In this document: piece after piece, positions 23,681 to 24,887 of the stretch
How positions within the stretch are numbered: the first letter of the stretch is position 1
How the letters are laid out: each line of letters starts with the position of its first letter
Sequence record: NC_049954.1
Length of the DNA stretch: 47,142 bases
Reading direction: 5' to 3' (one strand)
Origin: Escherichia phage 2G7b
Made by a program: the position numbers and the translations under genes
Notes under the pieces: model-generated
What the model saw: the letters and a program-made list of their open reading frames with translations, nothing else
Told to the model about the DNA's origin: nothing
Database searches by the model: none

Positions 23681-23809
23681 GCTGTATATGCAACGGAGGA
23701 AGAAACCTCGTTGCTGGAAGCCTGGAAGAAGTATCGGGTGTTGCTGAACCGTGTTGATACATCAACTGCACCTGATATTGAGTGGCCTACGAACCCTGTC
23801 AGGGAGTAA
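23681..23809 (+). pseudogene. tail fibre assembly (tfa) C-terminal remnant, copy 1
   Basis: 42 codons ..[39 protein letters not shown], the conserved Tfa C-terminus; preceded by an in-frame stop so no N-terminal part. Confidence 0.75.
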
Positions 23810-23863
23810 TCATTGGGATTATGCCGCAGCACGTCTTAAGCAAGAACGTGCTGCGGTTGGATG

Positions 23864-24532
23864 CTATTTTTTCCCTGAAGCGGAAAACATTACTACAGTA
23901 CCTTGAACCTTGGTTTTAACATTCTCGAAATGCTCTGAGAGTATATGTGTTAAGCCTTCTTCGGAATCTTTTGTGTTTGAAAAGATGCCTTTCTGATTGT
24001 AAATGCGCATCAGTTTTTGACCGAAGCTATTGTGCACAACTCCATCGCCAAGAATTGTGGCTCCGTATAGAGTTCCATCGTCAGTTAAGGCCTGCGCCGC
24101 ATTGCGTATTACACAGCTTTTTGTAGATATATTTCCAGGCAGGCAGTGAAGAAGGTAAAACATGGAAATGGAATCAAATTGACCATGTAACGCTGCGGGA
24201 TAAGGTTCAAAAACATCATGGCTAATTTTATGTTTAATTTTTGATTCCCCAGCCCTTGTAGATGCCGCGTTCAGGCTAGCTTCGTTCAAATCCATTAAAG
24301 ATATCAGACTACTCTCAGGTACGTGAGTAAGGTAAAACCCAGTTCCAACACCAATATCCAGATGGTTGTTACCTAAATGTTCCAGAAAGTGTGGAAGAAG
24401 GTGTTCCTTTGTAGGACATCCCCATGCAAGCCGATTTGATACTCCCAAAACCCACCAGTCATAAAGCTTTAGGGTAAGTGGTGTGTAAATTTTAGCCCCA
24501 TCATCTGTGTTTTTTTTCATTAATTTCACCAT
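23864..24532 (-). CDS. ybcY: class I SAM-dependent methyltransferase (DLP12 ybcY-like)
   Basis: 222-aa ORF with motif I HLDIGVGTGFY; flanked by tfa remnants as ybcY is between tfaD and tfaX in K-12 DLP12 (from memory). Confidence 0.65.
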   Translation of the reverse strand: MVKLMKKNTDDGAKIYTPLTLKLYDWWVLGVSNRLAWGCPTKEHLLPHFLEHLGNNHLDIGVGTGFYLTHVPESSLISLMDLNEASLNAASTRAGESKIKHKISHDVFEPYPAALHGQFDSISMFYLLHCLPGNISTKSCVIRNAAQALTDDGTLYGATILGDGVVHNSFGQKLMRIYNQKGIFSNTKDSEEGLTHILSEHFENVKTKVQGTVVMFSASGKK

Positions 24533-24588
24533 GTTATAGTTTTATTTGTGAATTAAATCAATTATGGCGATGAATTACAAGGGGTTAA

Positions 24589-24887
24589 ATGCTGCCGCAG
24601 CATAGCGATATTGAAATAGCCTGGTATGCTTCGATACAGCAGGAGCCGAATGGCTGGAAGACCGTCACCACACAGTTCTACATCCAGGAATTCAGTGAGT
24701 ATATTGCGCCACTGCAGGATGCTGGGAAATCGCAACGGAGGAAGAAAGATCGTTGCTGGAGGCATGGAATAAATATCGGGTATTGTTGAATCGTGTTGAT
24801 ACATCAGTAGCTCTGGGTATGAAGCTGTTTGTAACTCATGTTACAGTAACAACCATTACTATCTCGAAGGTGCAAAATGTATATTGA
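24589..24887 (+). pseudogene. tail fibre assembly (tfa) C-terminal remnant, copy 2, frameshifted
   Basis: Frame A reads ..[10 protein letters not shown] (Tfa-like), then the conserved ..[27 protein letters not shown].. continues in another frame; about 85% nucleotide identity to copy 1 over ~80 nt. Confidence 0.7.

Follow-up and report, generated by a model that had tools for sequence, protein, structure and literature searches.

Two fragments of tfa in direct orientation around the ybcY methyltransferase gene of Escherichia phage 2G7b

Repeated tfa sequence downstream of the tail-fibre genes

The stretch of DNA analysed here (the window, 47,142 nt) is the complete genome of the lambda-like Escherichia phage 2G7b, from cos to cos, with cos at base 1. 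Its gene order is J-lom-stf...-stub-ybcY(-)-tfaX-hydrolase(-)-ompT(-)-int, and the genes near the repeats were assigned to Stf, an S74 fibre, phrog_1443, a methyltransferase, a hydrolase, OmpT and a tyrosine integrase. A repeat search revealed one direct-repeat family, with copies at positions 23690 to 23764 and 24732 to 24806. The copies are 75 nt long, identical at 66 of the 75 positions (88%) without gaps, and spaced by 1042 nt. The probability of at least 66 matches arising by chance is ~2e-30 for a single pair and ~4e-21 across all pairs in the window. The preliminary description had noted two segments of ~80 nt with ~85% identity, lying in direct orientation on either side of a minus-strand methyltransferase gene. 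The alignment bears this out: both copies are in plus orientation, and the reading frame between them (23864 to 24532) is on the minus strand. The homology to tfa is slightly longer than the 75 nt repeat and is unequal between the copies.

Copy 1 is a non-coding 3′ stub of tfa (132 nt, positions 23678 to 23809, plus strand), comprising the last ~40 codons down to the native TAA stop codon at 23807 to 23809. It is preceded by an in-frame TGA (23678 to 23680) and has no usable start codon. The encoded peptide matches positions 95-130 of the 131 positions of the Pfam family Caudo_TAP (PF02413; E = 1.7e-17), and in chromosomes identical to the window PGAP labels it a pseudogene, 'tail fiber assembly protein, missing N-terminus'. 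The left edge adjoins, in a non-homologous joint at ~23678, a gene for a small membrane protein (23362 to 23670, plus strand; taken from the ORF list, PHROG match to phrog_1443 with E = 6.9e-59), so that this gene separates the stub from the self-chaperoning tail-fibre gene. This ORF is found in phage ev243 and is missing from mEp460 and Ayreon, although both have the same tfa stub.

On the right side the tfa homology of copy 1 runs past the stop codon into a terminator-like hairpin with a T-run (23824 to 23872, plus strand; stem 23824-23834/23846-23856), whose homologue in lambda lies downstream of tfa. Lambda matches the window from 23689 to 23858 at 88-89%. RNA folding of the 76 nt stretch 23805 to 23880 yielded a minimum free energy of -28.6 kcal/mol (centroid -24.4 kcal/mol, z = -4.0). 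This strong hairpin is located 3′ of ybcY, between that gene and the late operon, which are convergent. Consensus scans for promoters and terminators between 23300 and 25100 found no more sites than in shuffled sequence. In local alignments copy 1 with its terminator was 96-97% identical to the corresponding ends in K-12 (tfaD), PhiR26_1 (tfa) and Ayreon.

Copy 2 is an internal tfa fragment (24685 to 24806, plus strand, the start being approximate), which begins further 5′ in tfa than copy 1 (..EYIAPLQDA..) and loses clear tfa homology after 24806. It is joined to a 5′ fragment of a phrog_3893 gene (MLPQHSDIEIAWYASIQQEPNGWKTVTTQ.., 24589 to 24684, plus strand, ~30 codons), which forms the N-terminal part of a chimeric ORF, tfaX. 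TfaX residues 3-37 match phrog_3893 with E = 4e-7, and an intact 79 aa orthologue from Citrobacter matches the family over its full length (E = 7e-38). The phrog_3893/tfa joint lies at 24675-24685 and is non-homologous or a microhomology joint. PGAP places a 'DinI family protein' fragment on the opposite strand of this segment (24607 to 24687); it has no Pfam or NCBIfam match at E <= 1, and the plus-strand phrog_3893 5′ end fits better.

In 2G7b copy 2 has suffered a 7 nt deletion (TAGATCT, between 24724 and 24725), which is private to this phage and shifts the reading frame of tfaX. The resulting 66 aa product corresponds to a rare cluster (P0069), and PGAP describes the gene in identical chromosomes as 'tail fiber assembly protein; frameshifted; missing N-terminus'. 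In ev243 the unframeshifted orthologue has 101 aa; its Caudo_TAP match covers positions 75-121 (E = 9.1e-18), and positions 1-74 are lacking. Both segments thus encode Tfa C-terminal sequence, as the preliminary description had proposed, and neither is a complete Tfa gene with a start codon, an N-terminal domain and a length of ~190 aa. The tfaX ORF occurs in lengths of 101, 89, 82, 71, 66, 61 and 55 aa. K-12 and Kati have a premature TGA, one state is an internal deletion removing the Tfa part, and the variants end in three different canonical Tfa C-termini.

The ybcY cassette and its relatives

The DNA between the two fragments is a cargo cassette (23852 to 24675) made up of ybcY, the region upstream of it and 29 codons from the start of the divergent phrog_3893 gene. 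The ybcY gene (23864 to 24532, minus strand; phrog_2132) is intact and encodes a 222 aa class I SAM-dependent methyltransferase of the small-molecule type. Its Pfam domains (Methyltransf_12/23/25/11) are those of generic small-molecule class I enzymes. The nearest relatives in the PDB are UbiG and the juvenile-hormone acid methyltransferase, at E ~1e-3 only, and NCBIfam gave only sub-threshold matches. A DNA methyltransferase domain of the N6_N4_Mtase, Dam or Dcm type was not found in YbcY by Pfam, NCBIfam or PDB sequence searches, and the enzyme should not be assumed to modify DNA. The candidate ybcY promoter (minus strand, 24588 to 24561) is a weak consensus match, no better than those in shuffled sequence.

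With a GC content of 40.7%, compared with 56.9% in the structural genes, ybcY differs in composition from its surroundings. Lambda and mEp460 do not have it, Ayreon has lost it by deletion, and nine E. coli loci are without it. The gene thus combines the distinct composition and the presence/absence polymorphism of a moron. A tblastn search of phages with YbcY detected only copies of at least 99% identity from the same phage lineage, and the Enterobacter homologues have a chromosomal context. In Citrobacter freundii (contigs L014-L016) an 827 nt stretch matches the cassette at 91.7%; there it is accompanied by the intact 79 aa phrog_3893 gene, and tblastn found tfa on neither side. The homology to Ayreon stops exactly at 24675, the same base as the cassette end. 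Among K-12, Kati and ev243 the cassette is 98-100% identical. Between 2G7b and K-12 the identity is 99.1% in ybcY and 98.6% from 24533 to 24675, with the same joint at ~24675-24685.

The right flank (24807 to 25070), delimited by an identity table against K-12 and Kati, a terminator scan and an inverted repeat, is of a 'hydrolase type' and has no relation to the flank of K-12 and Kati, which is of the appY type. Identity to these two falls from 98-99% in the cassette to 72% between 24757 and 24806 and to ~50% after 24807; the two types of flank part ways within copy 2, at ~24757. The inverted repeat in this flank is the terminator hairpin of the alpha/beta-hydrolase gene (25015 to 25050).

At least 80% of the segment 23690 to 24806 was found in 3,791 of the 5,426 complete E. 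coli genomes (~70%) and in at least 12 sequenced phages. The order tfa(+), ybcY(-), tfaX(+), upstream of ompT(-), is that of the annotated K-12 chromosome and of the chromosomes identical to the window, and the 2G7b locus is the phage form of the DLP12 region tfaD-ybcY-tfaX-...-ompT of E. coli K-12. In K-12 tfaD (b0561), ybcY (b0562), tfaX (b0563), appY and ompT have the gene order and orientations seen in 2G7b; cassette identity is 98-99%, and both the phrog_3893-tfa joint in tfaX and the location upstream of ompT are shared. The two loci differ in several respects. DLP12 is a cryptic remnant, whereas 2G7b is a complete cos-to-cos phage. K-12 ybcY is a pseudogene, whereas the phage gene is intact. 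The left copy in 2G7b is only the 132 nt stub, unlike tfaD; tfaX is interrupted by the 7 nt deletion rather than by TGA; and the alpha/beta-hydrolase gene stands in place of appY. The arrangement around ybcY has long been annotated in K-12, a correspondence that the preliminary description had not recognised, and was in that sense already known; it is an ordinary scar of phage mosaic recombination. A literature search on tfaX and ybcY turned up incidental mentions only (promoter SELEX, appY promoter mapping, ompT context) and nothing on the repeat structure.

In lambda the 3′ end of tfa (orf-194) and the downstream hairpin are 88-89% identical to copy 1 and its hairpin, but the gene is full-length, there is no second fragment and ybcY is lacking. 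In 2G7b ybcY takes the place of leftward lambda b-region genes such as ea47 and is, like them, convergent with the late operon. The ybcY-tfaX unit of 2G7b recurs in the phages ev243, PhiR49_1, PhiR26_1, PhiR29/30, Kati, Turner and PhiR68_2. Two of these, ev243 and PhiR49_1, also resemble 2G7b in having copy 1 as a stub and hydrolase-ompT as cargo. On the left, PhiR26_1 instead has a complete stf-tfa, and the module of Kati and PhiR68_2 reads stf-tfa-pin-ynaE; on the right, the module is appY or the hydrolase. The tfaX frame is open in ev243 and PhiR26_1 and shifted in 2G7b.

Recombination in the repeats and alternative accounts of the locus

In nine of the 5,426 complete E. coli genomes tfa is joined straight to the downstream flank of tfaX, and ybcY is gone. 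Four of the resulting hybrid tfa genes were examined and had four different crossover points inside the repeat; one hybrid carries the tfaX TGA. The longest perfect match between the copies is 16 nt in 2G7b and in the Kati type, and 40 nt in K-12 and PhiR26_1. A Kati-type parent with its 16 nt match still gave a hybrid (L010). The nine loci could be products of intramolecular deletion or of replacement by recombination with an incoming phage, two routes that sequence alone does not separate. Exchange inside copy 1 can also be recognised: ev243 and 2G7b differ only in the 5′ half of this copy, where they are 76% identical, and are 100% identical from there on.

The suggestion that the methyltransferase gene could be lost by way of the repeats thus holds for relatives of 2G7b, but no deletion variant of the phage's own configuration was found. 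Synthetic 529 nt junction queries, one joining the short stub and one joining a full tfa to the hydrolase flank, each had 0 matches in the 5,426 genomes. In 2G7b the deletion should be rare because the patch is short and diverged.

Had the tfa 3′ end been tandemly duplicated in a single genome, and the methyltransferase cassette inserted later, the direct orientation of the copies would be accounted for, and so would their derivation from one and the same region of one gene family. We consider such a duplication very unlikely. The copies are only 88% identical, whereas the DNA between them is conserved at 98-100% among phages. Copy 1 is 96-97% identical to the ends of resident full-length tfa genes and copy 2 only 81-84% to any full-length tfa sampled, and each was judged to resemble other alleles more than its partner, so that they are not duplicates of each other. 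Their extents are also unequal, and copy 2 is fused to the phrog_3893 fragment of the cassette.

We give still less credence to the possibility that tfaX is a selected, expressed chimera, a mini-chaperone or decoy which hinders or aids lambdoid phages, co-resident or superinfecting, in the assembly of their side tail fibres. In ev243 and PhiR26_1 the two parts are fused in frame (101 aa), there are 89 aa versions with complete Tfa C-termini, one of them at 84% identity (P0036), the ORF has a PHROG family of its own (phrog_2341), and its 5′ part is widely retained. In K-12, moreover, genomic SELEX placed an RpoD holoenzyme site in the ybcY<>tfaX spacer, and the promoter was assigned to tfaX as a constitutive one (PMC3946193). 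These features must be set against at least seven mutually incompatible lengths, which include the TGA of K-12 and Kati, the 2G7b frameshift and the internal deletion, and against a C-terminal end that is freely swapped; a literature search turned up no experimental support. Were such a role real, the repeat would be kept partly by selection.

The repeats might, finally, be crossover sites, active or remnant, of an invertible or shufflon-type tail-fibre switch. The Mu G/Gin, P1 C/Cin, e14 P/Pin and p15B Min systems contain duplicated tail-fibre and tfa sequences, and recombination in them generates host-range modules. The 2G7b locus likewise belongs to a hotspot of tail-fibre variation, and in Kati and PhiR68_2 a Pin-type serine invertase gene lies between tfa and ybcY. 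In the known systems, however, the crossover sites are inverted, a serine invertase gene is adjacent and the alternative genes are oppositely oriented, and 2G7b has none of these. Its repeats are direct, and the crossovers were seen at four different positions. Neither an alternative fibre or tfa gene in the opposite orientation nor a second fibre C-terminus is present, and the pin of Kati and PhiR68_2 comes without an invertible segment around ybcY. Between 18.9 and 29.3 kb all ORFs of at least 90 aa, apart from those antisense to the genes identified there, were assigned to families other than serine invertases, the only recombinase being the tyrosine integrase. Matches to the gix-like core AAACCNNGGTTT with at most one mismatch numbered two, against 1.55 expected, and were unpaired. 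The switch is essentially refuted. The preliminary description had seen a scar of illegitimate or site-specific recombination in a tail-fibre shuffling region; the truncated tfa pieces with their non-homologous outer ends agree with the illegitimate variety, and the site-specific part finds no support. A chance likeness confined to a short motif is incompatible with the 66 identities in 75 positions and with Caudo_TAP matches of E ~1e-17 for both pieces.

Origin and significance of the fragments

Very probably, the two copies are non-functional relics of two different tfa alleles, which bracket the ybcY moron cassette, were left by mosaic assembly of the lambda-like b-region and now serve as passive homology patches. 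Copy 1 would be the 3′ remnant, terminator included, of a tfa that the phage once carried, left behind when a fibre module independent of Tfa, with a Peptidase_S74 intramolecular chaperone, displaced stf-tfa. Copy 2 would be an internal piece of tfa. A single illegitimate or microhomology recombination event would have attached it to the 5′ end of the phrog_3893 gene, which lies upstream of ybcY and diverges from it, and would have created the chimeric pseudogene tfaX. For the order of these founding events we infer three candidates: a single illegitimate crossover, out of register, between two phages; two steps in succession; or an insertion of the Campbell type.

The basis for this patch role is the conservation of the final ~120 nt of tfa across lambdoid phages. 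By general homologous recombination inside the relics, presumably through RecA or phage Red, tail-fibre modules would be swapped on the left and cargo (appY, hydrolase or other) on the right, and the intervening ybcY would occasionally be deleted. This mechanism involves no dedicated recombinase.

Lambdoid phages reportedly recombine at mosaic 'boundary' sequences or homology patches and carry morons, as Juhala and Hendrix in 2000 and Clark in 2001 are said to have described. In EHEC, exchangeable effector loci are found downstream of tail-fibre genes. From this pattern of low-GC cargo with its own signals downstream of tail-fibre genes, and of exchange at short conserved sequences, 2G7b is not substantively different.

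For annotation, both tfa pieces of 2G7b should be labelled pseudogene fragments. The repeat is the tfaD-ybcY-tfaX arrangement of DLP12-type lambdoid phages, met here in a complete phage genome, and its importance beyond such book-keeping is small. The locus nevertheless offers a clean, quantified textbook case of conserved gene ends used as homology patches for module exchange. The four crossover points, which we regard as independent, and the several swapped types of right-hand cargo show this exchange directly, and ompT, appY or the hydrolase gene, and ybcY travel as b-region cargo of still-complete phages.

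Genome setting of the tfa/ybcY locus

The lambda cohesive-end sequence GGGCGGCGACCT is present, exact, at bases 1-12 of the window, and the genes run in the order terminase ... J, lom, side-tail-fibre genes, tfa/ybcY locus, alpha/beta hydrolase, ompT, tyrosine integrase, early genes and lysis genes. With the cos sequence at its start and the lambda virion gene order, the window is therefore no chromosomal fragment but a complete lambda-like phage genome of 47.1 kb; the locus with tfa, the tail-fibre assembly chaperone gene, belongs to its b-region.

Many E. coli chromosomes carry the 1.8 kb surrounding the locus at 100% identity. 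In these, PGAP marks two 'tail fiber assembly protein' pseudogenes around a 'class I SAM-dependent methyltransferase' and, after them, the hydrolase gene, ompT, envY, ybcH and nfrA. The cryptic prophage DLP12 of E. coli K-12 MG1655 shares this order, tfaD (b0561), ybcY (b0562, pseudogene), tfaX (b0563), appY and ompT, except that the place of appY is occupied in the window by the hydrolase gene. At least 80% of 23690-24806 was found in 3,791 of 5,426 complete E. coli genomes, and the ybcY-tfaX unit is also present in the sequenced phages ev243, PhiR49_1, PhiR26_1, PhiR29_1/2, PhiR30_1, Kati, Turner and PhiR68_2. The arrangement is the already annotated, already known tfaD-ybcY-tfaX of DLP12. 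The preliminary description had read it as a recombination scar in a tail-fibre shuffling region; illegitimate joining in such a region is retained, but the reading was incomplete, the DLP12 arrangement having gone unrecognised.

Window 25071-27695, in the b-region, holds ompT (Omptin, E = 1e-130) and the gene of a 494-aa alpha/beta hydrolase with TAP-like/prolyl-aminopeptidase-like domains, whose N-terminus has the appearance of a putative signal peptide. Here the outer-membrane protease OmpT travels as cargo in a phage genome that is complete, its cos, terminase, integrase and lysis genes being intact. In several E. coli chromosomes an integrase gene directly follows ompT, and the match to the window (26600-28771) stops inside int, at ~28771. 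This break suggests tandem or neighbouring prophages at the attachment site, or a different int allele.

The two tfa fragments and the cassette between them

A repeat search of 23300-25100 revealed 23690-23764 and 24732-24806 as the sole substantial direct-repeat family. The two 75-nt segments align without gaps at 66 of 75 positions (88%), with a start-to-start spacing of 1,042 nt; by the binomial distribution, 66/75 or more matches would arise by chance with a probability of ~2e-30 per pair. Both tfa copies are on the plus strand, and between them a 222-aa ORF lies on the minus strand (23864-24532). Read in frame, the peptide of copy 1 (the left fragment) matches positions 95-130 of 131 of the Pfam family Caudo_TAP (E = 1.7e-17), and the unframeshifted orthologue of copy 2 (the right fragment) in phage ev243 matches positions 75-121 (E = 9.1e-18). 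The earlier claim that direct repeats of Tfa sequence surround a minus-strand methyltransferase gene is thereby borne out.

The limits of the copies were set by multiple alignments with lambda tfa, K-12 tfaD and tfaX, and phage loci. In copy 1 tfa homology begins at ~23678, just past an in-frame TGA and without a start codon, extends to the native stop (23807-23809) and continues into a hairpin (23824-23856; centroid -24.4 kcal/mol, z-score -4.0) followed by a T-run; the hairpin is homologous to sequence downstream of lambda tfa. Copy 1 is a non-coding 3' stub of tfa. The same stub, with a shared GAGCTG variant, lies unannotated in phages mEp460 and Ayreon, 53 nt past a long fibre gene. The 345-aa fibre protein of the window (22294-23331) carries a C-terminal Peptidase_S74 intramolecular-chaperone domain. 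A fibre with this domain would not need a separate Tfa, which would explain why the window has no intact tfa gene. Among the founding events, whose order we infer, tfa may have been cut down to the stub when the Peptidase_S74 fibre module recombined in. Between the fibre gene and the stub lies a predicted 102-aa membrane-protein ORF (phrog_1443, 23362-23670); it is found at this site in the window and ev243 but is missing in mEp460 and Ayreon, and may thus represent a further small moron. Upstream, window 19622-22003 encodes a 793-aa side-tail-fibre N-terminal-domain protein with a long run of alanine-rich near-repeats (..SETNAK.S.TAAK..), which give rise to spurious long ORFs in the other reading frames and on the complementary strand.

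Copy 2, on the plus strand, shows tfa homology from ~24685 (..EYIAPLQDA..) and lies within tfaX. Residues 3-37 of tfaX match phrog_3893 and residues 31-77 match Tfa families; tfaX is thus a chimera, and it forms a PHROGs family of its own, phrog_2341. Because bases 24675-24685 resemble both partners in protein (FVQELSK in phrog_3893, LMQVASE in Tfa), the two appear to have been joined by microhomology or illegitimate recombination. In the alignments the joint is common to all relatives, which implies a single origin. Beyond it the ORF varies: protein clusters contain at least three canonical Tfa C-termini (..PANPVRE, ..PEEPDTM, ..PAVPVME), a very common 82-aa form, the 61-aa K-12 form ending at TGA, and 55-aa and 71-aa forms. 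In the window a private 7-nt deletion (TAGATCT, between 24724 and 24725) frameshifts the ORF, giving a 66-aa product of the rare cluster P0069. The right end has therefore undergone repeated swaps, and the ORF does not encode a conserved protein; with so many disrupted states, a selected function for tfaX is unlikely.

The cassette (23852-24675) comprises ybcY, its upstream region and the first 29 codons of the phrog_3893 gene. It is 91.7% identical over 827 nt to Citrobacter freundii contigs, with no tfa sequence on either side of the match. There the ORF divergent from the methyltransferase gene is intact (79 aa, MPRRSDIEIAWYASIQQEPNGRKTVTTQRFVQELSK..., full-length phrog_3893 match, E = 7e-38). 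In these contigs the phrog_3893 gene is followed by the apparent start of an umuD-like (S24 peptidase) gene, and a DinI-family gene lies downstream of the methyltransferase gene. In the identical E. coli chromosomes PGAP places a 'DinI family protein, missing C-terminus' pseudogene on the minus strand of 24607-24687; its peptide has no Pfam or NCBIfam support, and this DNA is better explained as the plus-strand 5' end of the phrog_3893 gene. The homology of Ayreon with the window breaks off exactly at 24675, which confirms the right edge of the cassette.

Copy 1 and its terminator are 96-97% identical to full-length tfa ends (K-12 tfaD, PhiR26_1 tfa), whereas the identity of copy 2 to each of the full-length tfa genes sampled is only 81-84%; among phages, the intervening cassette is conserved at 98-100%. 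Judged by alignment, the copies are not duplicates of each other. Simple tandem duplication of the tfa end, followed by insertion, is disfavoured by this unequal divergence and by the chimeric joint in copy 2. The mosaic boundaries, as placed by pairwise identity, lie inside the tfa fragments: identity between window and ev243 rises from 76% in 23678-23735 to 100% from 23736 on, and the window, with its hydrolase flank, and the loci with an appY flank (K-12, Kati) are 98-99% identical through the cassette, 72% in 24757-24806 and unrelated past 24807.

Loss of ybcY by recombination

Synthetic 529-nt junction queries were used, short enough that ybcY-bearing genomes split into two separate matches. 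The junctions of the stub and of a full tfa with the hydrolase flank were each found in 0 of 5,426 E. coli genomes. The junction of K-12 tfaD with the appY-type flank was found, with 100% coverage, in nine. Four of the nine loci were fetched; they read lom-stf-tfa-appY-ompT, without ybcY. In each of them tfa is a hybrid whose left part resembles that of tfaD or Kati and whose right part resembles tfaX, and the switch point (slash) differs in all four: GGAAGAAA/GATCG in L009, which brings in the tfaX TGA and is annotated 'internal stop', TATCGGGTG/CTGCTAAACC in L008, CTGAACCGTGT/GGACAC in L011 and GTTGATAC/TTCCGTAGC in L010. L010 resembles Kati in its left part, so that either pin-ynaE-ybcY was lost or an incoming phage brought a replacement; this locus appears to derive from a pin-ynaE-bearing parent like PhiR68_2/Kati. 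In PhiR68_2 and Kati (3354-4527 of their loci) a Pin-type serine invertase gene and ynaE (Rac-like) lie between tfa and ybcY, and an invertible segment is not apparent.

Crossover points that vary in position mark general homologous recombination, the pathway that we infer, and not the action of a site-specific enzyme. The site-specific alternative of the preliminary description does not hold, and inversion of a tail-fibre segment is rejected: the tfa repeats are direct, the window has neither a serine invertase gene nor oppositely oriented alternative genes, and its gix-like sites are unpaired (2 matches vs 1.55 expected).

The repeats had also been proposed to mediate loss of the methyltransferase gene. 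This is borne out in relatives, by the nine ybcY-less genomes and the hybrid tfa of the four loci fetched; for the window's own flank no such junction was found. In K-12 and PhiR26_1 the copies share a perfectly matched run of up to 40 nt; in the window the longest such run is 16 nt, inside the 75 nt that are 88% identical. The minimal efficient processing segment of RecA-dependent recombination in E. coli was reportedly put at ~23-27 bp by Shen and Huang in 1986. Mismatch repair also acts against homeologous exchange. One would therefore expect deletion to be rare in this phage, consistent with the absence of both hydrolase-flank junctions. Ayreon represents a second, tfa-repeat-independent route of loss: its stub, hairpin and last 36 nt of ybcY (window 23864-23899) are fused straight to 24559-24675 (L013 3681-3833), ybcY having gone through a separate 659-nt illegitimate deletion.

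The methyltransferase YbcY

YbcY is intact in the window. It has only generic class I SAM-methyltransferase domains (Methyltransf_12/23/25/11 in Pfam) and no equivalog match in NCBIfam, and the nearest sequences of solved structure, UbiG and juvenile-hormone acid methyltransferases, reach only E ~1e-3; it is therefore predicted to be a small-molecule-type enzyme and not a DNA methylase. Homologues (56-69% identity) occur widely, in Enterobacter, Salmonella, Klebsiella, Yersinia and others, and in Enterobacter hormaechei the gene lies in an ordinary chromosomal neighbourhood. Among phages only copies at least 99% identical were found, all in this phage lineage. The GC content of ybcY is 40.7%, vs 56.9% for the phage structural genes. 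Genomic SELEX in K-12 located a constitutive RpoD holoenzyme site and an H-NS site in the spacer between ybcY and tfaX (PMC3946193). The low GC content, the chromosomal homologues and the near-identical phage copies are hallmarks of a moron, and ybcY would be such a gene and may be expressed.
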